From assembly GCA_964359155.1 (NCBI GenBank), contig CAYHRN010000002.1, positions 1 to 33,210 on the forward strand: a stretch of DNA of 33,210 bases, given 5' to 3'. Both the position numbers and the translations under genes were made by a program. Under the pieces are notes generated by a model, which made no database searches, had not been told where the DNA came from, and was given only the letters and a program-made list of their open reading frames with translations. This document shows, piece after piece, positions 21,316-33,210 of this stretch (position 1 is its first letter; every line of letters begins with the position of its first letter). The DNA comes from an uncultured Gammaproteobacteria bacterium. Lineage in GTDB: Bacteria; Patescibacteriota; Patescibacteriia; CAYHRN01.

Positions 21316-21740
21316 CAGCAACTTTGTGGCATGATATGCTGGGTATAGCAATGCTGCTTATACTTGATCAGGTGAGTAAATATATTGTGCCGCAATGGCA
21401 GATGACGTATACCTTGAATCAAGGGAGTGTTGCCGGATTAGGCAGAGAATTAAGCATACCGTGGTGGTGGTGGGCAATCCCGTCACTTATGGTGCTTACC
21501 TTATTGTGGCGCCCAGGGAAGTTTTTTATTCCCACCAAGAGTTTTTATAGTGCGCGCATACTGATCTCCTCCGGCATTGTGGGCAATCTTATTGACCGTT
21601 TCTCCTATGGTGCTGTGCTCGATTTTATTGATATCAGTATAGCGGGTTTTCATTGGCCCGCATTTAACTTTGCTGATATATATTTGGTAATGGGCGTCTT
21701 GTTGGTTCTTGTAACTTTGGTGTCCAGGAAGCATGTATAA
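21306..21740 (+). CDS. lspA: lipoprotein signal peptidase (signal peptidase II)
   Basis: ..GNLIDRFSYGAVLDFID..FNFADIYL.. motifs. ATG 21306 is preferred over track start 21270. Confidence 0.88.
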   Translation: MRLTATLWHDMLGIAMLLILDQVSKYIVPQWQMTYTLNQGSVAGLGRELSIPWWWWAIPSLMVLTLLWRPGKFFIPTKSFYSARILISSGIVGNLIDRFSYGAVLDFIDISIAGFHWPAFNFADIYLVMGVLLVLVTLVSRKHV

Positions 21741-22905
21741 ACGTATGTTTTCTTCTCGAAGGTCAAATGCTCATCGCGTTATTCGTTTTTCTGCACGGAG
21801 CTCGCCAAGGACGCACCGTTCACGGCGGCGTTCTTGGCTTCTGCCGCTGGTGCTTTCGTTGCTCATACTTGTTTCCACCCTCGGCATTGCAGGGCTTGCC
21901 CTTATTGTATGGATTTCGCATGATTTACCCGACCCCAATACTGCCCTTGCTGCCAAGGATTTTGCACAAAGTACGAAAATTTTTGATCGCACCGGTACGG
22001 TTAAATTATATGAACTGTATCAAGAGGAAAAACGCACCATACTCCCCTTTGAGGCAATGCCGTTAGTTGCGCGTCAAGCAACGTTAGCCGCCGAAGATAA
22101 AGATTTTTATTCTCATCGCGGGTTTGACCTTCGGGGTATTGCGCGTGCCTTGTATACCGATATTACGAAGGGCACCCTTGCACAAGGGGGCTCCACGATT
22201 ACCCAGCAGCTTATTAAAAATACTTTGCTCACGCGCGAAAAATCATTCACCCGTAAATTAAAAGAGTTGATTTTGGCGTATCGTATTGAGCAAAAATTTA
22301 CCAAAGATCAAATTTTAAAGCTGTACCTTAACGAAATTCCCTATGGAGCAAATGCCTATGGCATTCAGGCTGCTGCTGAAATTTATTTTGGCATTCCTGC
22401 ACTACAATTGAGCTTGGCCCAAGCAGCACTTTTGGCTAGTTTACCTAAAGCCCCCTCTCGCCTTTCACCCTATGGGGGCAATCTTGAAGAGCTCACCGCA
22501 CGGCAACACTATATACTCGATGTGATGGCGCGGCAGGGGTATATCAATCAAGACAGCGCCGCAAGCGCCAAGGCAGAGAAATTGGTATTTCGTACGCGAC
22601 GCGATGAAGTACAAGCACCCCATTTTGTGGCGTATATAAGGCAACTTCTTTCCCAAACGTATACCGAACAAGAATTACAACAAGGAGGATTTAAGATTAC
22701 TACCACCCTTGATCTCTCGCTGCAAAAATATGCCGAAGAGGCCATTGCTGAATGGGGGCCACGTAATGAAAAAGACTACAAGGCAAGCAATGCCGGGCTT
22801 ATCGCGCTGCATGGTACTACGGGTGAAATTGTAGCTATGGTAGGTTCACGAGATTTTTTTAATGAGAAAAATATATTTTCAATTATAAATTTGATTGGCA
22901 AGTAA
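21733..22905 (+). CDS. class A PBP, N-terminal fragment (TM anchor, GT51 domain, start of transpeptidase domain)
   Basis: GT51 motifs EDKDFYSHRGFD, GGSTITQQLIKN, RKLKELILA. Ends ..FFNEKNIFSIINLIGK* after the frame break. Confidence 0.85.
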   Translation: MYKRMFSSRRSNAHRVIRFSARSSPRTHRSRRRSWLLPLVLSLLILVSTLGIAGLALIVWISHDLPDPNTALAAKDFAQSTKIFDRTGTVKLYELYQEEKRTILPFEAMPLVARQATLAAEDKDFYSHRGFDLRGIARALYTDITKGTLAQGGSTITQQLIKNTLLTREKSFTRKLKELILAYRIEQKFTKDQILKLYLNEIPYGANAYGIQAAAEIYFGIPALQLSLAQAALLASLPKAPSRLSPYGGNLEELTARQHYILDVMARQGYINQDSAASAKAEKLVFRTRRDEVQAPHFVAYIRQLLSQTYTEQELQQGGFKITTTLDLSLQKYAEEAIAEWGPRNEKDYKASNAGLIALHGTTGEIVAMVGSRDFFNEKNIFSIINLIGK

Positions 22906-22949
22906 ATATTACGCTACGGCCACGCCAGCCAGGGTCTTCGTTTAAACCC

Positions 22950-24287
22950 TTGGTATATGCGGCTGCATTTATGAAGGGGTATACGCCCAATACCTTGGTC
23001 TTTGATACTAAAACTATTTTTAAGGCATACCCTGAAGACTATGCGCCCGAAAACTATGATGGTAAAGAGCATGGGCCCCTTCAGCTCAAGAGTGCGCTCG
23101 CAGGATCGCTGAATATTCCTGCCGTGAAACTCCTGTACATTACTGGGGTTGATCGTGTGCTCGACCTTGCCGAAGCGCTCGGCTACACCACCCTGAAAGA
23201 TCGTTCACGATTTGGGTTAAGCTTGGTATTAGGAGGCGCCGAGGTAAAGCTGCTGGAACATGCAGCAGCCTTTCGTTCATTTGCCGAGCATGGTATGTAT
23301 CGTGCGCCCAGTGCTATTGTGCAAATTCAAGATGCAGAAGGTAGTGTGGTGTATGAGCGCCGCAATAATCAGGCGCGTAGTGTGGTTGTCCCCGAGGTAG
23401 CACATACGATCACCAGTATTCTTTCCAATAATGCCCTGCGTACCTTTATTTTTGGCAGTAATAGTTTTCTCCAACTGCCCGATCGCCCTGCGGCCGTGAA
23501 AACCGGTACCACCAATGATTTTCATGATGCCTGGGCTTTGGGTGCAGTGCCCAGCCTCACTGCCGGGGTATGGGTGGGGAACAATGATAATAGCCCTATG
23601 AAAAAAGGGGCGGATGGCAGTAAACTTGCGGCACCTATTTGGCAAAGTTTTATGAAAAAGGCTTTGGCAGGTACACCGGTTCAGGAATTTGTGCCCCCCA
23701 AACCAAGCAGTGCGAATAAACCTATTTTAAAAGGTGAAGGCTTGGGTGAAGTGACGGTAATTCTCGATAAGGCATCGGGTAAACGTGCGACCAGCCTTAC
23801 GCCAGATTCGTTTAAAATAGAAAAGAAATTCAGAGTGCTGCACGATATTTTGTATTTTGTAAACAAAGACGACCCCACGGGCCCTGCACCTTTGCACCCC
23901 GAAACTGATCCGCAATACGCAGGGTTTGAGGCGGGTGTTGCCGCATGGGCACAGAAGCAAGGCTTACAAAATGAAGAGCCCCCCATAGGTGAAGATGATG
24001 TGCATGTACTAGACAATATTCCTCGCGTAACTATCGTAGCTCCTGTTACGGGGAGTCGCATTACAACATCTACTCCTTTGCAGACACAGGCAAGTGCCCC
24101 CCGGGGTGTTGCGCGCATGGAAGTGGCATTGAACGATATCGTTGTTGCACGCACACAAGGCTCTTCGCTTATTGCAACTCTTGATGTAAGCTCAGTCCCT
24201 CCTGGGTTTCACACCCTTACTGCCTATGCGTATGATGATATTGACAATAAAGGCACTGCGTCGGTGACCATCAATGTGACGCGATGA
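22950..24287 (+). CDS. class A PBP, C-terminal fragment (transpeptidase SxN and KTGT motifs plus Ig-like C-terminal domain)
   Basis: ..GSLNIPAV.. and ..VKTGTTND.. motifs. The frame stays open upstream to 22866 and there encodes RQPGSSFKP. Confidence 0.85.
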   Translation: MVYAAAFMKGYTPNTLVFDTKTIFKAYPEDYAPENYDGKEHGPLQLKSALAGSLNIPAVKLLYITGVDRVLDLAEALGYTTLKDRSRFGLSLVLGGAEVKLLEHAAAFRSFAEHGMYRAPSAIVQIQDAEGSVVYERRNNQARSVVVPEVAHTITSILSNNALRTFIFGSNSFLQLPDRPAAVKTGTTNDFHDAWALGAVPSLTAGVWVGNNDNSPMKKGADGSKLAAPIWQSFMKKALAGTPVQEFVPPKPSSANKPILKGEGLGEVTVILDKASGKRATSLTPDSFKIEKKFRVLHDILYFVNKDDPTGPAPLHPETDPQYAGFEAGVAAWAQKQGLQNEEPPIGEDDVHVLDNIPRVTIVAPVTGSRITTSTPLQTQASAPRGVARMEVALNDIVVARTQGSSLIATLDVSSVPPGFHTLTAYAYDDIDNKGTASVTINVTR

Positions 24288-25501: not shown

Positions 25502-27352
25502 TTATTTTTTTGATTCAATCTCTTTCAGGATTCGTTCGGTAAATTGTTTGCGGGTCATGGGTATAGTTGTTTCTTTACCACGCAACCGCACCGCAAGGCG
25601 CGTGCTTTTTGCTTCTTTGTCGCCCATAACCAGCATGTAGGGAATTTTTTGCTGTACAGCTTTACGGATTTTGTAGCCCACGGTTTCATTACTCAAGTCT
25701 GCATGCACTCTAATCCCCTGCTCTTTTAGTTCTTCCGCCAGTTTTTTAACTACCTTTTCATGTTTTTCCCCTACCGGAATAATACCTACTTGCACGGGCG
25801 CAAGCCATGTGGGAAAGGCGCCCGCGTAGTGTTCGATGAGAAAGCCAATAAGGCGTTCGTGGGTAGAAAGTGGTGCGCGGTGAATACACAAAGGAGTTTT
25901 CTCTGTGCCGTCTTTGTCTTTGTAGGTGAGATTAAACCGCGCAGGCACGGCAAAGTCTACTTGGTTCGTGGCAAGGGCAAACTCGCGCCCTATCGTGCTC
26001 CAAATCAGTACGTCAATCTTGGGGCCATAAAAGGCTGCTTCATTGGGCACTTCCACAAATGGCACTTTGGTTTTTATCAAAATAGTACGCACCATAGCTT
26101 CTGTTTTCTCCCATAGCGGCTTATTGTCGATGTATTTTTTACCCAGTCCTTCGGCACTATGCGTGCTAAGGCGGATGACATATTTTTTAATGCCAAAAAT
26201 TTTAAAGTATGCATGGTACAATTTAATCACGGCTAAAAATTCTTTTTCAAACTGTTCTTCGGTGCAATAAATATGCGCATCATTCATTTGCAAGCTGCGC
26301 ACGCGCATCAGGCCAAATAATTCCCCGCTTTTTTCGTAACGGTAGCAGGTGCCGTATTCTGCTAGGCGTAGTGGTAAGTCGCGGTAACTTCTGGGTTCTG
26401 CCGCATAAATTTGATGATGATGTGGGCAGTTCATGGCCTTCAGGTAATACGTAACTTTTTGCCCATTGTCTTCGTTCATCACCATGGGAGGGAACATGCT
26501 TTCGGCATAATAGGGCAAGTGGCCCGAAGTTTTATACATGTCTTCTTTTGCCACATGCGGGGTGCGTACGCGCACATACCCTGTGGCCGCTTCCATGTCT
26601 TTCCCAAGTTTTTCAATTTCTTCAATTAGTATTGCGCCATTGGGGAGCCAAAGGGGCAACCCAGGTCCCACCAAGTCGGAAAACGCAAACAGTTTCAGTT
26701 CTTTGCCAAGCTTGCGGTGGTCGCGGCGCTCAGCTTCTTTTAACAGTTCCAAGTGCGCATCCAGTTCTTCTTGGGTATGAAATGCAAGACCGTAAATGCG
26801 AGTGAGCATTTTGTTTTTCTCGCTCCCCCGCCAGTAGGCGCCCGCAAGGTGGGTAAGTTTAAATGCACCTAATTCGTTGGTGTTTTTAATATGAGGTCCG
26901 CGGCAGAGGTCTATAAATTTGCCGGTTTCATAGATGGAAGCCATGCCATTGCTCACTGAATCTTCGGAGGGTAAATCCCCCTTTTCTTCCCCCTTTGTAA
27001 AAGGGGGAACGAGGGGGATTTGTGTGGTTCCTCGCTCCTTCAGGTCGTTGAGGAGTTCAACTTTAAATTGTTGCCCGCGAGATTGAAAAAATGCAATTGC
27101 CTCATCGAGCGGCATTTCTTTGCGCACATAGGGAGTAGTACGTTTTGCCAAGTTGCGCATTTTTTGTTCAATCCGCACTAAATCTTGTGGCGTAATAGGT
27201 TGAGTAAACTGAAAGTCATAAAAAAATCCATGTTCAATCACGGGGCCAATGCCCAGCTTTACGCCGGGGTACAGCTCTTCCACGGCAGCGGCCATAAGGT
27301 GAGCAGTGGAATGGCGAAGGGTTTCGAGGTCGGGGTTTTGGTTGTTGCTCAT
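25502..27352 (-). CDS. thrS: threonine--tRNA ligase (no N-terminal TGS domain; carries an in-frame palindromic-element insert)
   Basis: HSTAHLMAAAV editing-domain motif, ..DLCRGPH.., class II motifs ..RVRSLQMNDAHIY.. and ..FYGPKID.., and an anticodon-binding domain. ATG 27352 (MSNNQNPDLETLRHSTAH..) is preferred over track start 27433. Confidence 0.95.
   Translation of the reverse strand: MSNNQNPDLETLRHSTAHLMAAAVEELYPGVKLGIGPVIEHGFFYDFQFTQPITPQDLVRIEQKMRNLAKRTTPYVRKEMPLDEAIAFFQSRGQQFKVELLNDLKERGTTQIPLVPPFTKGEEKGDLPSEDSVSNGMASIYETGKFIDLCRGPHIKNTNELGAFKLTHLAGAYWRGSEKNKMLTRIYGLAFHTQEELDAHLELLKEAERRDHRKLGKELKLFAFSDLVGPGLPLWLPNGAILIEEIEKLGKDMEAATGYVRVRTPHVAKEDMYKTSGHLPYYAESMFPPMVMNEDNGQKVTYYLKAMNCPHHHQIYAAEPRSYRDLPLRLAEYGTCYRYEKSGELFGLMRVRSLQMNDAHIYCTEEQFEKEFLAVIKLYHAYFKIFGIKKYVIRLSTHSAEGLGKKYIDNKPLWEKTEAMVRTILIKTKVPFVEVPNEAAFYGPKIDVLIWSTIGREFALATNQVDFAVPARFNLTYKDKDGTEKTPLCIHRAPLSTHERLIGFLIEHYAGAFPTWLAPVQVGIIPVGEKHEKVVKKLAEELKEQGIRVHADLSNETVGYKIRKAVQQKIPYMLVMGDKEAKSTRLAVRLRGKETTIPMTRKQFTERILKEIESKK
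26973..27021. repeat. nested-hairpin palindromic element inside the thrS coding sequence
   Basis: AAATCCCCC-ttttc-TTCCCCCTTT-gta-AAAGGGGGAA-cga-GGGGGATTT. Shares CCCTTTGTAAAAGGG and GGGATTTGTG with the copy at 29445-29493. Confidence 0.7.
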
Positions 27353-27447
27353 AAGGATTACAGTATTTAAAAAATGTAGCCGCAAGCTTGAGCTTGCGAT
27401 CAATGTGGATTTTAGTATATCACGCCGCACCATGAAACGTACAATGG

Positions 27448-27476
27448 TTGACCTTTCAAGTAAAGTTTGCTATTAT
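27448..27476 (+). promoter_or_regulatory. sigma70-type promoter with extended -10 for small ORF 27522-27665
   Basis: TTGACC (27448-27453), 17 nt spacer, TGC-TATTAT (27471-27476). Confidence 0.55.
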
Positions 27477-27521
27477 ATATTTGCCTAAAACCCCATGGAA
27501 AAATACAGAAAGGAGGCTTCC

Positions 27522-27665
27522 ATGGACAGTTTTTGGAACCGCCACCCGCGCCTCACGTGGGTTCTGCTGGTAGGTGAGGCTCTCGCGTTCGCGAGTATCC
27601 TCGCCTACGTGGGGTGGTTGGGCGTTCAACCACCGCCCCCTCCGCCACCCGCTCCCCCCACCTGA
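27522..27665 (+). CDS. small single-pass membrane peptide with polyproline C-terminus (47 aa; 56 aa if ATG 27495 is used)
   Basis: Hand-translated: MDSFWNRHPRLTWVLLVGEALAFASILAYVGWLGVQPPPPPPPAPPT*. AAAGGAGG lies 5 nt upstream. Has its own promoter and terminator, and G/C-ending codons. Confidence 0.5.
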   Translation: MDSFWNRHPRLTWVLLVGEALAFASILAYVGWLGVQPPPPPPPAPPT

Positions 27666-27702
27666 GTGGTGGTCGAGGAAGGTCCGGAGTATCCGGACCA
27701 GA

Positions 27703-27738
27703 AAGGCTCGTGCCACTAATGCCGGGCCTTCTTTTTTT
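27703..27738 (+). terminator. intrinsic terminator of the small-ORF cassette (abuts the stop of the convergent 353-aa protein gene)
   Basis: AAGGCTCG / CGGGCCTT 8-bp stem (one G-U) with a 12-nt loop, then C plus T7 (27732-27738). Preceded by a second hairpin GGTCCGGA-gta-TCCGGACC (27681-27699). Confidence 0.7.
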
Positions 27739-27746
27739 ATTTTGCA

Positions 27747-28808
27747 TTAACATCCACCACAGTTTCCTTTGCCTAAGGCAACTTCTTGTGAAGCACAGGA
27801 AGAAGAAAAGGAAATAAAATACTTCCATTGGCCAGGCGCAATATTGACTGATCGCAAGGCAATGGGCTTGAAGTTCTTACACTGTATCCATGAGGGGGCT
27901 TTATTGGGTTCAGGACGAATTTTATTTTTAAGGCTTTGTCCTTGGTCTGAGTAGGGAGCGCAATAGTTCTGTTGATTAGTGCAGCTTATTTTGGGTGTGC
28001 AAGCTTGGTAGAGTTTAGATGCTATGTCAGGCCATACTTTGTCGGCAAAGCATCGTTCGCATGCACGTGCTGCTACCTCAGGAGGCAGAATAACTATGGC
28101 AGTTTCGTTTTTCATGCCACCACCCTGAGCAAGGGTGCGGTAGGGTACCGTGACACTCACTCCTTCTTTTATTGGTGTGTTGCTTTGAATAGTCTTTCGG
28201 TCTGATAATTTATTATCTTCCATGATGCTTCTCAGTTTTTGAGGGATGCTGGTGAGCGGAAGCTCGAGCTCTGCGTCTATTTGATTTGATGTGGGGGGAA
28301 GTGCACCAAGATCCCAGGTACTTTTTTGGCATATGCTTTGCGTGGCATCATGAGGCGCGGAAGTTGTTTCTCCTGGCCAACGCAGTGGTGTGCCTGGTGC
28401 GAGGGATTCAAGAGGATCGCCAAATCCCCACATAGACCCTCTGCGTGCCTCTCTTGGATCAAAAAGTCCATTGTCTTGGAAAAAGAGGAGTGGTTTATCG
28501 GCAGCACTTTTGGTGTTCACGGTACCTTTAATGGTATTGCCACGTACTGGCGCTGGTATATTTTTAACTTTAAAGCCTTCCAGTGCTTGAAAGTAGGTGA
28601 GGCCATTGTGTTTTTTAAACGAAAGTCCTCGCGAAGAAAAGGTAGTCCCCTCACGGATCTTGTCAGCATTTTGCAACGTAAACGTAAAAGGTACTCCACA
28701 TGGTGGTTTTTGATCGAGCCAGTAGTCGGTAATAGCCTGGGCATGGAGGGGTGTTGTGGGCAGTATCAGGGCCATAATGGTAAGAGCAAAAAAGAAGTTG
28801 CGCATCAT
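27747..28808 (-). CDS. secreted hypothetical protein, Cys-rich C-terminal region
   Basis: Signal peptide MMRNFFFALTIMALILPTTPLHAQA. 11 Cys, 9 of them in the last about 105 residues. Ends GKGNCGGC. No motif recognised. Confidence 0.75.
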   Translation of the reverse strand: MMRNFFFALTIMALILPTTPLHAQAITDYWLDQKPPCGVPFTFTLQNADKIREGTTFSSRGLSFKKHNGLTYFQALEGFKVKNIPAPVRGNTIKGTVNTKSAADKPLLFFQDNGLFDPREARRGSMWGFGDPLESLAPGTPLRWPGETTSAPHDATQSICQKSTWDLGALPPTSNQIDAELELPLTSIPQKLRSIMEDNKLSDRKTIQSNTPIKEGVSVTVPYRTLAQGGGMKNETAIVILPPEVAARACERCFADKVWPDIASKLYQACTPKISCTNQQNYCAPYSDQGQSLKNKIRPEPNKAPSWIQCKNFKPIALRSVNIAPGQWKYFISFSSSCASQEVALGKGNCGGC

Positions 28809-28829
28809 ATGTAGTATTTTTCTTTTATA

Positions 28830-29429
28830 CTACTCTTTTTGAATGTGCACGTCTATGGTGAAGCTCAGAGCGGGGTTCGCGCCCAGCCAGGTATATTTGT
28901 TATTCACTTGGTATATAGGGCGAAAGGCAAGGGTATAGGTGCCAGGGATGCTGGGAGCAACCACGGAAAATGTAAATGTGCCGTGCGCAGTGGGCTCTAC
29001 GCTTTCTTCTTTAAGTGCGGCCACGCGTTTTTTGCCTGGCCAACTTTTGTGATACCAGGGGCTAGAATCTGCTTCGTCGGGCGCAAGAATTTGTAAAAAT
29101 GTAGTGGTGTTTGTCCATGTGGCAGTGCCGGTATTTTGAAATGTAGCAGAAAGGGTAAGAGTTTTTCCTGGGGCAGCAGAGATAAGTTTGTGGCTTTGGG
29201 AAATAAGTTTTTGAGACCAGGTAAAGGGTTCACCCTCACCCCCGCCTACGGCGGGGCCTCTCCCCTCAAGGGAGAGGCGGGTTTTTTCAGAGGGTAAGGG
29301 AGAGGGGTATGATTCAATTTCAAAATCATTCGCATGATTTCCTTGATATATCCTGAATAACCAAATCCCCTGCCCCACCAGGGCAAGGGTCAATACGCCA
29401 ATAACTATGGAGATGTATTCTTTTTTCAT
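28830..29429 (-). CDS. N-terminally membrane-anchored protein with beta-rich (Ig-like, possibly NBR1-type) ectodomain
   Basis: TM helix ISIVIGVLTLALVGQGIWLF, then a repeat-encoded linker. The beta-strand-like segment ..GKTLTLSATFQNTGTATW..GTFTFSVVAPSIPGTYTLAFRP.. is present. The domain call is tentative. Confidence 0.7.
   Translation of the reverse strand: MKKEYISIVIGVLTLALVGQGIWLFRIYQGNHANDFEIESYPSPLPSEKTRLSLEGRGPAVGGGEGEPFTWSQKLISQSHKLISAAPGKTLTLSATFQNTGTATWTNTTTFLQILAPDEADSSPWYHKSWPGKKRVAALKEESVEPTAHGTFTFSVVAPSIPGTYTLAFRPIYQVNNKYTWLGANPALSFTIDVHIQKE
29240..29287. repeat. tandem GC-rich hairpins embedded in frame in the anchored-protein gene
   Basis: CCCCGCC-tac-GGCGGGG (29240-29256) and GCCTCTCCC-ctcaa-GGGAGAGGC (29256-29278), followed by GGG plus T6 on the plus (antisense) strand. 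Translated on the minus strand as ..KTRLSLEGRGPAVGGGEGE.. Confidence 0.65.
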
Positions 29430-29444
29430 AGGCCGCGAATAGTA

Positions 29445-29493
29445 TACCTCTCATTCTCCCTTTGTAAAAGGGAGAAAAGAAGAGGGATTTGTG
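29445..29493. repeat. intergenic copy of the nested-hairpin palindromic element (5' leader region of the anchored-protein gene)
   Basis: TCTCCCTTT-gta-AAAGGGAGA (29455-29475) and GAGGGATTTGTG (29482-29493). Strings of 15 nt and 10 nt are identical to the thrS copy. Confidence 0.65.
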
Positions 29494-29500
29494 GCGTGCC

Positions 29501-29529
29501 TTGCTTTAATAATAAATTTATGCTATTAT
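29501..29529 (+). promoter_or_regulatory. sigma70-type promoter with extended -10 for ORF 29589-29966
   Basis: TTGCTT (29501-29506), 17 nt spacer, TGC-TATTAT (29524-29529). The string TGCTATTATgTATTTG nearly matches the promoter at 27468-27483. Confidence 0.5.
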
Positions 29530-29588
29530 GTATTTGGACCAAGATCGCGGATCTTGGCTTTGTTGGGCCTTTTCCCAGGGAGGGAGCC

Positions 29589-29966
29589 ATGTCGAACCAG
29601 CAGGCTGTCAGGCAGTTAACGATCAACTGCCTGATCATGCTCGTTTTTTTGGCCATGCTGGGGGTCGGGTGGCTTCACTACCGAGCAGCGGAGCTCGGTG
29701 TGCCGCTCATCCCCCGCCGACCCGTCGACCAGGTTGAGCTCGGTAGTGGGGCGCCCAGGCCCGAGGCGCCGCCCGAGAAAATCCTGGATTTCTCGGATAT
29801 CGGTCTGGCCGAGGCGGTCGCTAAGGGAGGCGCCGAGGGTGCTCGCGCGGCGGCCGAAGCCGTCACCAAGGCCGCGGAAGTGGTCGGCGACGTGGCAGCT
29901 GAGGGGGTCGGCAAGATCCCCGAAGCCATGGAGGAGGCGGAAAAAAAGAAAAAGCCGCCCAAGTAG
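29589..29966 (+). CDS. GC-rich small membrane protein: one TM helix, Pro-rich linker, Ala/Glu/Gly-rich tail (125 aa)
   Basis: ATG 29589 follows AGGGAGGGA by 3 nt. Sequence MSNQQAVRQLTINCLIMLVFLAMLGVGWLHY..PRRPVDQ..APRPEAPPE..AEAVAKGGAEGARAAAEAVTKAAEVV..EKKKKPPK. Strongly G/C-ending codons. The track start GTG 29496 would run through the promoter. Confidence 0.6.
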   Translation: MSNQQAVRQLTINCLIMLVFLAMLGVGWLHYRAAELGVPLIPRRPVDQVELGSGAPRPEAPPEKILDFSDIGLAEAVAKGGAEGARAAAEAVTKAAEVVGDVAAEGVGKIPEAMEEAEKKKKPPK

Positions 29967-29999: not shown

Positions 30000-30036
30000 G
30001 GAGGGGTAGACTACCAGTGCGTCGCCCCTCCTTTTT
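30000..30036 (+). terminator. intrinsic terminator of ORF 29589-29966, overlapping the stop of the convergent 711-aa protein gene
   Basis: GGAGGGG (30000-30006) pairs with CCCCTCC (30025-30031), followed by T5 (30032-30036). Confidence 0.55.
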
Positions 30037-32171
30037 CATTTCTTTGCCACACCTTTGAGTACTTTTTCTTGTTGTTCTTTAAGACGTTTCAATATTTCTA
30101 TGAAAAATTCTTTCAGGGGGTCAATAGTACCCATTTCTTTAATATAGTTTTTCTTTAAACCTATAAGACGCTCTTCTTCTTGCCGCATAAAGCGCTGCAT
30201 ACGCACGCCCAGGCGTTTGACCATGCGGATTTCTTTAATCTTAAGAAGAGTCTCTACTAACGCATCTAGTGCACGCGGTATTTGATATTTTAATGCCGTG
30301 GGGACGACTGAATCCAGTATCCCTGCAACTACCATGCGTATGTCATTTTCTGTGTCTTGAAGGGTGTCTTTGATAAATTTCGGCAATTTAATGGTACAGT
30401 CTTTTAAATACATGGCTTTCATATTTGCCAAAAGGCGGGTAAAGGCAAGTACAATCATCTCATTTTTAATACCAATGAATGGGGGTCCCCCAAGCACTTT
30501 TGCTATTTCTGGTATTTCTGGTGGCATAGGAGGAAGTCCGCCATTACCATCGGGGTCATTTTTGTGATCATCAAGCCAGCTCCTCGCAGCATAAGGGTCT
30601 TTAGCGCGCTTACGCAGTTCTCTAAAAGCTTCAGAGCCAATGAATGGCATGCCTACTACCACACCGCCTTTTCGATATTTTGTGGAGTAATCGCTGGCAG
30701 CTTCTAATAGTTGTTCAAGATCACCATTGTCTTTAAAATAAAGCTTTTTAAGTAATGAGGCAAGGCCTTTTTTGACGCGCGCATAGATTTCGTGTTTCAT
30801 GCGCAACTTCAGATGATCTTTTGCTTGCTCGCTACACTGCAAGTATTGTAATGCATCTTGTTCAAGGCTGCCTTTCTTGGGGTCAAACATGTCTTGAGGT
30901 TTTTTGGGTGCAAACGGGTTGATAAAGAGCGGTGGGGTTTTGGGAGGTGGTTGTGGCGCGGTGGTGTCTTTCGAATCTTCTTCCTCGGGGAACGAGGGAT
31001 CATTCTTTAATATACGATCAATATCTTCTTGAAGAGAGTCAAGATCTTTTTGAAAATCTGCCTTGGTGCTATGCAGCAGAGCATGCAAGTCTTTCAGGGC
31101 ATCAAGGAGGCCTTGCTTATTATCATTTTTTGCGGCAGCCAAAAGAGTGTCGAGTAATGCAAAGAGTTGGGTAATGCCACGATCGGCAAGTGCTGCTTTT
31201 AGAATACCTTCATGAATATCAATCTGGGGTGCGTTGCGGTCGTACTTTTTAGGATTATAAGAAATAGCATGTTCTAAAAGCCATGAAGCAGGCAAAGAAC
31301 AATTGGCAGGCCACACAGAAATAGCGCTCGCCAGGCCTTGCAAGATACGCAAGGTTTGTATGGGAACGGCAATACCACGTGCATATCCTCGGCCGTCGTC
31401 TTGCTTTTTTAATTCCTTTACCGCTTCAGCCAAGGTGGGGCGTGGCGTAGGTACGGTAAGGCCTTGTGCTGCGTACGCTTTTTCAATTGTTTCATCCCAG
31501 AGCGGCCAGATGGCGTCCAAGAATTTACGGCCGATCAATGCCTTTATGTCTTGATAGCTTGCTTTGGGATTAAAACTACAATCGGCAATTTCTTGCACGA
31601 GCGTGTCTTGAAACTGTTTGAGCATCTGCGTTTCGTCCAAATTAGCATCAATGGCAGGTGGCGCACCAGTACCTGGTAAATCTGGTTTTAATAGTACCCC
31701 TGGTGCCGGGGCTATGCCTGGAGTGTGTACAAACGCAAAGAGTGGGGTAAGTGCGGTATTGGCAACAAATTGCTCTTTACTCACCGTGCTGGTGCCTTGC
31801 AACAAGGCCTGCACGATTGCATCAAAACGTAAGCGCGCAACAAGCGTGGCAAGGTTATTGGCCACGCCTTGTGCCATGGTAATATCTTCTTTGCTTGAGG
31901 GTTGTACCCGCAGTAATGTTTGTCCCAGTATTTGGTTCTTACGGGTGGCACTTAGGCGATACAAGGTGGGAGTAGTTACCACAGGAGTATTAAAATATTT
32001 TTCCCAGGTATTGTCGAGGGGCCTTGCCTTACAGCCCACGACACCACTTGGTACTTCTTGCCCGCCTAAATTTTGTGCAGGAAAACTTGGGCGGGCTTGT
32101 AGGGCGGCCATTGCAGGCGTAAGTGGGCCAAGCAGCAGGCTTAAGATAATAAAAGGAGTGAGAAGTTGCAT
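30036..32171 (-). CDS. secreted hypothetical protein, 711 aa, mostly helical with a central Pro-rich linker
   Basis: Signal peptide MQLLTPFIILSLLLGPLTPAMAA. Linker ..TTAPQPPPKTPPLFINPFAPKKP... No motif recognised. Starts 7 nt after the upstream gene's stop. Confidence 0.8.
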   Translation of the reverse strand: MQLLTPFIILSLLLGPLTPAMAALQARPSFPAQNLGGQEVPSGVVGCKARPLDNTWEKYFNTPVVTTPTLYRLSATRKNQILGQTLLRVQPSSKEDITMAQGVANNLATLVARLRFDAIVQALLQGTSTVSKEQFVANTALTPLFAFVHTPGIAPAPGVLLKPDLPGTGAPPAIDANLDETQMLKQFQDTLVQEIADCSFNPKASYQDIKALIGRKFLDAIWPLWDETIEKAYAAQGLTVPTPRPTLAEAVKELKKQDDGRGYARGIAVPIQTLRILQGLASAISVWPANCSLPASWLLEHAISYNPKKYDRNAPQIDIHEGILKAALADRGITQLFALLDTLLAAAKNDNKQGLLDALKDLHALLHSTKADFQKDLDSLQEDIDRILKNDPSFPEEEDSKDTTAPQPPPKTPPLFINPFAPKKPQDMFDPKKGSLEQDALQYLQCSEQAKDHLKLRMKHEIYARVKKGLASLLKKLYFKDNGDLEQLLEAASDYSTKYRKGGVVVGMPFIGSEAFRELRKRAKDPYAARSWLDDHKNDPDGNGGLPPMPPEIPEIAKVLGGPPFIGIKNEMIVLAFTRLLANMKAMYLKDCTIKLPKFIKDTLQDTENDIRMVVAGILDSVVPTALKYQIPRALDALVETLLKIKEIRMVKRLGVRMQRFMRQEEERLIGLKKNYIKEMGTIDPLKEFFIEILKRLKEQQEKVLKGVAKK

Positions 32172-32178
32172 GCAAGGA

Positions 32179-33210
32179 TTATAATCCTAGAGCCGAGGGT
32201 ACGGCAAAGAATTTACCCCAGGAAAGATAGTACAACATGAGTTTGAGTTTACCTGTGAAGCCGGCGTAGTACGAGGCAATGGCCTCTGGGGACACGGTGA
32301 GTAACTGCTCTTGGCTAAGAAGTTCCAGTAAGAGTTCGTAGGAAACGCTTTGTTGGCTAAGAGGCTTATCAGTAGTGAGAACTAAAGGTTGGGCTTTCGA
32401 CACTGTCGATGGTTGTGCGGTAAGGGTCGCGGCAACGGATTCACCTGTGGGGGATGTGATGGTAGGCGTTGTTTGCGCAAGTTCTTGCTGCGACATACCT
32501 GCAAAGTTAAGGGTTACGGTTCTCGCAGTGCTTACGGTGCCTGAAGCACCCCCTACGGTAACCACAGATCCTGGGGGAGCATTAGGTACCGTGAATGATA
32601 CGGAAGAGCCACCGCTTGAGGTGCCGCCAGAAGGCGTGGTGGCGGGCAAGGGAAGGCTGGAGGTGATTTCTGGCAGATCATTCAAACGCTCAGTATCAGT
32701 AGCTTTCGTTGCTTGTTGTGGATTTGTGGCAACCGCAATACTGTCTTGTAGTTCTGCTTGTGTAAGGGTGCGCGTGTGTGGCCCGTCTGCTGTGTCAGCA
32801 GTAAAAGTAACTGATATAATGTCGTTGAGCTCTTTAAATATTTCATCCCATGAGGTGAAGGTAAAGCGTGTGCCGTCTTTTTTTATGCCCGTGCCCGTCA
32901 ATGATGCAGTGCTTACCGCAACCCCATTGAAGAGTAATTCAGGCATACATGCTCTTGTTTGCGTGCCTTCACTGCTAGTTCCCGTACCCCCAGGGCTCGA
33001 GAATGTGTACATGCCATTTTGCCCAGGTCCGGCGTAGGAGAAGAGTGCTCCACCGGATAACGCTCCACCAGTATCTTGTGCTGATACATTTGGTACTGGG
33101 GTCAGCTCCAAAGTAATTTCTGATCTGGTAAAACTGTTAAATTGAGCCGCTACGGGGGTTAATGGTAAAAGTATAAAGCTTGCAATGGCACTAAATATGA
33201 AAAAACGCAT
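32179..33210 (-). CDS. secreted hypothetical protein, Thr/Ser/Gly-rich, hydrophobic C-terminus (start codon at the window edge)
   Basis: Signal peptide MRFFIFSAIASFILLPLTPVAAQ. Low-complexity T/S/G tracts. C-terminal ..KLKLMLYYLSWGKFFAVPSALGL. Its upstream region lies outside the window. Confidence 0.7.
   Translation of the reverse strand: MRFFIFSAIASFILLPLTPVAAQFNSFTRSEITLELTPVPNVSAQDTGGALSGGALFSYAGPGQNGMYTFSSPGGTGTSSEGTQTRACMPELLFNGVAVSTASLTGTGIKKDGTRFTFTSWDEIFKELNDIISVTFTADTADGPHTRTLTQAELQDSIAVATNPQQATKATDTERLNDLPEITSSLPLPATTPSGGTSSGGSSVSFTVPNAPPGSVVTVGGASGTVSTARTVTLNFAGMSQQELAQTTPTITSPTGESVAATLTAQPSTVSKAQPLVLTTDKPLSQQSVSYELLLELLSQEQLLTVSPEAIASYYAGFTGKLKLMLYYLSWGKFFAVPSALGL

Follow-up and report, generated by a model that had tools for sequence, protein, structure and literature searches.

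A nested palindrome read in frame within a Patescibacteria threonyl-tRNA synthetase gene, probably a copy of a REP-like repeat found in many bacterial phyla

Repetitive extragenic palindromes (REP, BIME and REPIN elements) are thought to be mobilised by RAYT tyrosine transposases, and each family is usually confined to one species or genus. Like the repeats described below, REP/BIME elements combine a 20-40 nt hairpin with a short, conserved, unpaired tag on one side. Also like them, they appear as single units or in head-to-head and tail-to-tail pairs, which form larger palindromes, are mostly intergenic, and show no target-site duplication (PMC3733652). In-frame REP units and dimers of the GTAG and CGTC superfamilies are known in genes, often those of DNA repair such as uvrA and uvrB, where they encode about 20-30 extra residues proposed to lie in loops or linkers (Di Nocera et al. 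2013, PMC3733652). Another precedent is the Rickettsia palindromic elements (RPEs), selfish DNA found in frame in essential Rickettsia genes and encoding a peptide compatible with the protein fold (Ogata et al. 2000, 2002; summarised in PMC10969869). Here we analyzed a nested palindrome within thrS, the gene for threonyl-tRNA synthetase (ThrRS), on a 33,210-nt stretch of contig CAYHRN010000002.1 from an uncultured Patescibacteriota bacterium (assembly GCA_964359155.1), hereafter the window. We consider it likely that this palindrome derives from a dispersed repeat of REP/BIME-like kind, short and non-coding, one copy of which inserted where thrS encodes a loop.

The thrS element is 49 bases long, with a 9-bp outer stem enclosing a 10-bp inner stem, both perfect; the nested arrangement reported in the initial annotation was confirmed base by base (Table 1). 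A 76-nt stretch over the element folds on the + strand at -39.2 kcal/mol (z = -4.97), with none of 200 shuffled sequences as stable, and the mRNA-sense fold reaches -34.3 kcal/mol (z = -4.10), so that z lies between -4 and -5. The minus-strand open reading frame (ORF) runs through the element uninterrupted, bearing out the claim that the palindrome is translated within ThrRS. Residues 111-127 of the protein, QIPLVPPFTKGEEKGDL, are read in frame from it. The canonical repeat unit contained in the element encodes (Q)IPLVPPFTKGE on the coding strand and is nearly identical to two units from Methylococcaceae, L041 (TTCCCCCTTTGTAAAAGGGGGATCGAGGGGGATTT) and L084.

The family unit is 33-35 nt long. 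It comprises a C/T-rich hairpin of 9-10 bp, 2-5 nt, and then an (A)GGGGGATT(T) tag, which together give the motif TCCCCCTTTnnnAAAGGGGGAnnnAGGGGGATTT. The 848 kb of hit loci contained 159 units, and the window two sites. Four arrangements were observed: single units; head-to-head pairs of about 80 nt, with two hairpins within AAATC(Y)CCC...GGGGGATTT (L018, L037, L067); the nested head-to-head form of the thrS type, 44-49 nt, in which two units have one hairpin in common (L020, and twice each in L085 and L037); and tail-to-tail pairs with a 10-60 nt spacer (L086, L057, L060). The outer arms of the nested and two-hairpin forms are terminal inverted repeats, AAATCCCCC / GGGGGATTT. Unlike that of REP elements, the tag GGGGGATT(T) stands 2-5 nt from the stem, and neither GTAG nor CGTC was found as a conserved tag in the 58 units inspected base by base.

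A further difference from REP elements is that the tag co-varies with the hairpin stem, and does so across phyla. The stem extension TCC/GGA goes with the tag GGGGG-ATT (29 cases), CCC/GGG with GGGGGG-ATT (14 cases), CCT/AGG with GGGAGGG-ATT (6 of 6 cases), and TCT/AGA with AAGAGGG-ATT in one case, the second copy in the window. The tag complements the 5' arm and mirrors the 3' arm; only that second copy discriminates between a direct and a mirror relation of tag and stem. Rfam gave no family at gathering thresholds over the whole window, with noise of at most 19 bits across 26800-29700, and Pfam gave nothing for six element-encoded peptides. The unit was also considered as a donor of ribosome-binding sites (GGGGGA, 4-12 nt, start codon). 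This was rejected, as just 8 of 61 units precede a plausible start and ORF, mostly a weak TTG.

We scanned genomes, one per species, with a 15-mer core of the unit. At least 120 genome loci carry the core, a figure to be read beside the roughly 1100 matches that we estimate chance would give a 15-mer in the collection (4^15 against 596 Gb, both strands). Among the matches listed, 77 of 126 core matches stand in an extended family context, that is, the stem extension, 2-5 nt and (A)GGGGGATT(T), and/or a mirror-image AAATCCCCC upstream. Hosts among these matches include Syntrophaceae and other Deltaproteobacteria, Nitrospirae, Aminicenantes, Chloroflexota, Omnitrophota, Ignavibacteria and Betaproteobacteria, gammaproteobacteria (Methylococcaceae, Crenothrix, Halothiobacillus and Coxiellaceae) and Patescibacteria (L018, L056, L059). 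Among cultured bacteria, the hosts are Glaesserella australis HS4635, Acinetobacter pragensis, Luteimonas sp. R10 (NZ_CP141262), Cellvibrio, Lysobacter and Arsukibacterium. Near-identical copies occur in more than 10 phyla; plasmids of cyanobacteria carry related copies, and those of Acinetobacter weaker partial matches. The initial annotation needs correction in that the thrS element is nothing peculiar to this genome but one member of a family spread across phyla. This sets the family apart from REP elements as well, in that one sequence is common to all these phyla. The exact family unit was also seen in three viral or proviral contigs of IMG/VR (L127, L128, L129), and such contigs may be a means by which it passes from phylum to phylum.

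Scanning metagenomes for the GTA-loop nested form gave at least 120 copies of 44-49 nt, at 90 unique sites. Most copies are intergenic, and only about 4 of the 90 unique sites are clearly coding. Many diverged JGI Ga03152xx contigs (L131-L169) have the nested element at one orthologous site (..GAAAAGTCCAG|element|ATCGCGAAGGCAC..). The recurrent metagenome site is written CGGGGCAGCGAAAAGTCCAG|element|ATCGCGAAGG, and there are small spacer differences among these contigs. The copies at the orthologous site suggest long vertical residence, not rapid turnover.

The window itself contains a second copy, which the initial annotation had placed in non-coding DNA. We confirmed it in the divergent spacer between an ORF at 28830-29429 (-) and a gene starting from the ATG at 29589 (+). 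The two copies have CCCTTTGTAAAAGGG and GGGATTTGTG in common, and in the second the inner stem carries a compensatory C>T / G>A change, from TTCCCCCTTT/AAAGGGGGAA to TTCTCCCTTT/AAAGGGAGAA. Even with two mismatches allowed, only 0.12 occurrences of the 15-mer core would be expected in the window, against the 2 observed. When the window was searched generically for pyrimidine-rich hairpins with a G-rich ..ATT tag after them, these two loci and no others were found; among 20 shuffled windows, 18 gave no hit and 2 gave one hit each (about 0.1 per shuffle).

Two side observations concern this copy and its neighbouring ORF. A sigma-70-like promoter match (10/12, consensus match only) lies at 29441-29468 (-), with TTTACA, a 16-nt spacer and TATACT; on the minus strand, the TTTACA corresponds to the loop of the intergenic copy. 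By its sequence, the copy may supply a -35 box for ORF 28830-29429, whose ATG is at 29429. Within this ORF, a hairpin CCCTTGCCC-TGGTG-GGGCAGGGG at 29367-29389 (-) continues directly into a unit-like GGGGATTT and encodes part of an N-terminal hydrophobic helix (..LTLALVGQGIWLF..). This could be a degenerate member of the family or a chance occurrence.

Copies read in frame are found in other protein genes as well (Table 1). The element is free of stop codons in five of six frames, the sole closed frame being that of CCT TTG TAA, and all five open readings (..PPFTKG.., ..PLLQRG.., ..PFYKG.., ..PFVKG.. and ..PLCKRG..) are present within genuine genes. In HrpA of Glaesserella australis, a cultured isolate of the Pasteurellaceae, the dimer accounts for about 28-32 residues that are extra relative to HrpA of Actinobacillus, Klebsiella and Vibrio, an approximate extent because the nearest orthologues are 78-79% identical. 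Peptides of the nested form in other genes (IPPQPPFVKGGLGGDF, NPPQSPFVKGGLQGDL, KSPPAPLLQRGAGGGFA) parallel the thrS peptide IPLVPPFTKGEEKGDL. Near-identical units in dozens of unrelated genomes, some of them in frame in Pfam-verified genes, support the claim that the palindrome is dispersed repeat DNA, not a ThrRS feature; six orthologue genes that have no hairpin at the site support this exclusion too. These in-frame copies also bear on an artefact, in which an assembly or binning error such as a chimeric join at the repeat placed in thrS an element that is not truly there. Repeats are classic points of misassembly. The ORF, however, continues in frame across the element, flanked on either side by homologous ThrRS sequence in the order expected, and in-frame copies are also present in finished or isolate genomes, as in the HrpA example, so that an error of this kind is hardly credible.

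We then considered the host protein. The thrS product is a ThrRS of the Patescibacteria type, and its full-length ORF matches Staphylococcus aureus ThrRS (1nyq) at E = 1e-166. The closest of 8000 ThrRS homologues is 70% identical, with named relatives from Patescibacteria (Falkowbacteria, Staskawiczbacteria, Parcubacteria); the homologues have PF07973, PF00587 and PF03129 (tRNA_SAD, class II core and anticodon-binding domains). In a 50-sequence alignment H14, H18, C150, H154, C309 and H360 are invariant, so the editing-site, zinc-site and catalytic residues are kept. Query residues 8-106 align with residues 69-165 of 1nyq and 138-616 with residues 169-643, leaving query segment 107-137 in place of three residues of 1nyq. 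The sequence PLVPPFT was absent from all 120 of 120 ThrRS homologues. In six orthologue genes no hairpin was found at the insert site, with DNA-level minimum free energies of -12 to -29 kcal/mol versus -34.4 kcal/mol in the query, and no family units were found in 44 kb of these six loci.

How much of the loop was added is less simple. The palindrome had been credited with roughly 20 extra residues. This stands against proteobacterial and S. aureus ThrRS, where segment 107-137 replaces 3-6 residues, but it overstates the case against the closest orthologues, which already have an enlarged loop of 18-26 residues (30 in the query) with the pattern G-T-T-x-[ILV]-[KR]-x-E-E-[KA]-[GQ]-D-[ILV]; relative to these, 7-11 residues are clearly extra. 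As for the peptide itself, orthologues do conserve its ..EEKGDL half without nucleotide palindromy, but not PLVPPFT. Homologue P0039, for example, encodes ..EEAGDV as GAA GAA GCC GGG GAT GTT, which is tag-like and not palindromic.

Several observations weigh against the insertion of a dispersed repeat as we read it. The ..EEKGDL end of the peptide aligns with the orthologue motif E-E-[KA]-[GQ]-D-[ILV], encoded there without palindromy. MAFFT alignment and a profile-based deletion scan against 30 orthologues single out just PLVPPFT as clearly extra: excision of these 7 residues raised the profile score by 11.8 bits and excision of 10-11 residues by 8 to 9 bits, whereas excision of all 17 changed it by -1.6 to +2 bits. 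Removing the whole element would leave a 13-residue loop, shorter than in all 30 closest orthologues (18-26). The best homologue being only 70% identical, there is no empty site from a close relative. There are just two copies within the 33-kb window, no mobilising gene was seen near any copy, in short loci and by weak tests, and the neutrality of the insert is assumed.

Some of these data would fit a local origin, by inverted duplication or template switching of purine-rich thrS codons (..AAG GGG GAA GAA AAG GGG GAT..). There would then be no mobile element, and the intergenic copy would be unrelated or derived from thrS. The PLVPPFT codons that the profile scan alone marks as extra amount to 21 nt; together with the preceding ATC they are nearly the reverse complement of the next 21 nt, and orthologues encode E-E-[KA]-G-D-[ILV] by GGGGAT-like codons with no hairpin. 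But the thrS hairpin, GTA loop, 3-nt spacer and tag match units from other phyla almost base for base, as in L041; the nested 44-49 nt form is standard in the family, with its at least 120 copies; and a local event would not recreate a consensus common to several phyla. We therefore regard a local origin as very unlikely, and a purely local one is ruled out because the hairpin and left tag match units of unrelated phyla.

Within the reading as an inserted repeat, the extent of the insertion can be drawn in two ways. By a modest preference, we favor insertion of the whole element, in the 48-51 nt nested form, possibly replacing part of the loop. Its excision would give GTT-PSEDSVSNGMAS-IY, which recalls GTT-ALEPSEEN.. 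in homologue P0004, and the likeness of KGEEKGDL to the orthologue motif would be a coincidence of two purine-rich, acidic sequences. The less favored but plausible way is that a unit of 21-33 nt inserted beside tag-like thrS codons (GAA AAG GGN GAT) and so completed the outer stem. Because the profile scan disfavors whole-element insertion, some of the outer stem may descend from the original thrS sequence. To judge from sequence comparison, the right-hand boundary is uncertain, and 7-11 residues are unambiguously extra. The 22-nt thrS flank had no match in the metagenome scan, and no exact protein match was obtained for ThrRS with either start codon.

Other ThrRS of Patescibacteria carry inserts of another kind. 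Eight-residue inserts, LRPGSGQA and LRQAQDDA, are present in P0116 / P0104 (L251, L252 4001-5782), and PSTSSGQ in P0089. The LRPGSGQA-type inserts occupy a neighbouring loop immediately ahead of ..F.DLC.., and their DNA is CCTTCGACAAGCTCAGGAC-like, which may resemble another widespread environmental repeat motif. This suggests that the editing-domain region of Patescibacteria ThrRS tolerates insertions repeatedly.

The AlphaFold2 model of ThrRS (mean pLDDT 83.7) is consistent with a harmless position. Residues 114-132 score below 50, between a helix (95-107) and a strand (137-143) of the N2 editing domain that both exceed 90. The insert falls in a low-confidence loop between confident elements, and the model fits an unstructured surface loop; its exposure at the surface is inferred, from the low model confidence and the alignment to the PDB structure. 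The insertion would have survived because it kept the reading frame and brought no stop codon; the element would be transcribed and translated with the gene, giving the N2 editing domain an additional surface peptide that is rich in proline and glycine and probably disordered.

An alternative is a selected function, either a lineage-specific ThrRS loop with its own role or an mRNA hairpin regulating thrS translation or stability, in which case the likeness to the repeat would reflect co-option. In keeping with this, the mRNA-sense hairpin is very stable (-34 kcal/mol), relatives have a variable, acidic sequence in the loop region, and the gene is otherwise intact. Against it, the peptide is what the family yields in unrelated proteins, in any of five frames, it has no confident structure in the model and occurs in no orthologue, and a copy of the identical kind lies in non-coding DNA 2.4 kb off. 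A selected function is therefore, in our view, highly improbable. We read the thrS insert as a tolerated passenger, not an adaptation, neutrality being suggested by its place in a low-confidence loop, by family copies that use whichever frame is open in unrelated proteins, and by the intact host gene. As a side observation on the region upstream of thrS, a promoter-like TTTCCA, 18 nt, TATAAT occurs at 27501-27472 (-), and a terminator-like hairpin with a T-run at 27399-27380 (-), ahead of the ATG at 27352. From their sequence these could represent a leader or attenuator; Rfam gave neither a T-box nor any other match upstream of thrS.

We looked for traces of mobilisation at the copies. At the 90 unique nested metagenome sites no target-site duplication beyond chance was found: flanks showed 7 duplications of 2 nt (5.6 expected), 3 of 3 nt (1.4 expected) and none of 4 nt. 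A regular-expression search over 0.9 Mb of loci found no RAYT-like C-terminal motif. Among eight ORFs with units on both sides there was no transposase by inspection without Pfam; they looked housekeeping-like, plus one probable DUF559-like endonuclease-domain protein recognised by eye. No RAYT, the enzyme associated with REP elements, was thus met in either the motif scan or the eight flanked ORFs. Ten window genes showed no transposase family in Pfam, and the neighbourhood of a cyanobacterial plasmid copy held just a distant IS4.

Tentatively, we suggest that the family spreads as a single-stranded hairpin mobilised in trans by an HUH/tyrosine enzyme of the RAYT or IS200/IS605 kind. Such a route would need no terminal duplication and would yield head-to-head and tail-to-tail dimers. 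HUH/tyrosine processing fits better than a DDE-type MITE because of the lack of target duplication, the one-sided tag, the head-to-head and tail-to-tail dimers and the stable residence at orthologous sites.

Other described repeats resemble the family in part. Bacterial MITEs (Correia/NEMIS, ERIC, RUP) are likewise non-autonomous, with terminal inverted repeats and some in-frame fusions; however, they measure 70-300 bp, derive from DDE insertion sequences and have target-site duplications, whereas the present family is 44-85 nt long and none were seen. Elhai et al. (2008) reportedly described cyanobacterial SDRs of 21-27 nt that are hairpin-capable, apparently mobile, without a known transposase and confined to cyanobacteria. 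The present family resembles them in occurring on cyanobacterial plasmids, a comparison made by description only. RPEs, to which the initial annotation had likened the element, are also set apart by description: they are about 100-150 bp long, occur only in Rickettsia and encode a conserved peptide in one frame, in contrast to an element of 33-49 nt that crosses phyla and uses five frames. That analogy is sound in spirit, as both are in-frame palindromes in an essential gene, but REP/BIME elements are closer in size and architecture. Intragenic GTAG/CGTC REPs are like the present family in lying within genes for known proteins, the hosts here including UvrB, HrpA and ThrRS, and differ in tag and hairpin sequence.

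The REP survey PMC3733652 includes neither six of the host genera or groups of the present family (Geobacter, Nitrospira, Syntrophus, Methylococcus, Acinetobacter and Pasteurellaceae) nor the GGGGGATT(T) tag and the cross-phylum spread. A thin literature search found no description of a GGGGGATT-tagged family, and this absence is weakly established. Intragenic REPs and RPEs being already known, the kind of element is known; the family, with its own tag, covariation and cross-phylum sequence, is at least a new variant.

Table 1. Positions of the thrS element, the second window copy and in-frame copies in other genes. Arms, loop and spacers of the thrS element are given as read on the + strand
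Feature	Locus	Position	Strand	Remarks
thrS, ThrRS of Patescibacteria type	window	25502..27352	-	without N-terminal TGS domain
Nested palindromic element in thrS	window	26973..27021	-	codons span 27022-26972; ThrRS residues 111-127
Outer left arm AAATCCCCC	window	26973-26981	+	
Spacer TTTTC	window		+	between outer left arm and inner 5' arm
Inner 5' arm TTCCCCCTTT	window	26987-26996	+	
Loop GTA	window	26997-26999	+	
Inner 3' arm AAAGGGGGAA	window	27000-27009	+	
Spacer CGA	window		+	between inner 3' arm and outer right arm
Outer right arm GGGGGATTT	window	27013-27021	+	
Canonical family unit in thrS element	window	26987..27021	+	hairpin TTCCCCCTTT-GTA-AAAGGGGGAA, spacer CGA, tag GGGGGATTT
Second copy, intergenic	window	29446..29490	+	arms 29454-29463 / 29467-29476; loop 29464-29466
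Weak left outer arm ACCTCTC of second copy	window	29446-29452	+	
Tag GAGGGATTT of second copy	window	29482-29490	+	
Moraniibacteriota radical-SAM enzyme	L018			Pfam domain spans insert
Nitrospirae class I/II aminotransferase	L037			domain spans internal unit; second element forms the C-terminus
Glaesserella australis HS4635 HrpA (NZ_PTPX01000017.1)	L086	4962-5135		tail-to-tail dimer between Helicase_C and HA2
Formyltransferase/enoyl-CoA hydratase fusion	L060			insert in linker
UvrB	L225			metagenome locus
Family-9 heptosyltransferase	L193			metagenome locus; domain spans insert
HypF	L175			metagenome locus; domain spans insert
AMP-binding enzyme (AMP-ligase)	L207			metagenome locus

Elsewhere in the window, a class A penicillin-binding protein at 21733-24287 (+) is divided over adjacent ORFs, with the transglycosylase at 21733-22905 and the transpeptidase at 22950-24287; the latter has a TTG start, and Pfam matches it only from profile position 50 onward. 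Possible explanations are a split gene, a frameshift and a sequencing error. Three minus-strand ORFs had no Pfam match: 27747-28808 (353 aa), 30036-32171 (711 aa) and 32179-33210 (at least 343 aa).

In its widest form, the finding may be that the thrS insert is one instance of an undescribed pan-bacterial REP-like superfamily, a GGGGGATT-tagged pyrimidine hairpin that colonises ThrRS, UvrB and HrpA in frame; we hold this possible, though short of probable. It would take in bacteria of the candidate phyla radiation (CPR), plasmids of cyanobacteria and a small number of viral contigs, in more than 10 phyla. If it is true, the constancy of sequence across phyla would imply a mobilising enzyme that is conserved and horizontally mobile, or else recognition of the hairpin and tag by some universal host process. 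It is unusual for one REP-like sequence to occur in Nitrospirae, Desulfobacterota-type lineages, Gammaproteobacteria, cyanobacteria and Patescibacteria, and this points to a widely distributed mobilisation system. Cultured carriers such as Glaesserella australis, Acinetobacter pragensis and Luteimonas sp. R10 make the family experimentally tractable.

For the organism studied here, the idiosyncratic ThrRS loop of about 17 residues is best read as parasitic DNA and not as a functional adaptation specific to the CPR. In annotation and structure modelling, Pro/Gly-rich inserts of the ..PPF.KGG.. and ..PLLQRG.. kind should be taken as repeat-derived. Copies of the family are in this sense natural 'insertion scans' that mark the tolerant loops of conserved proteins.

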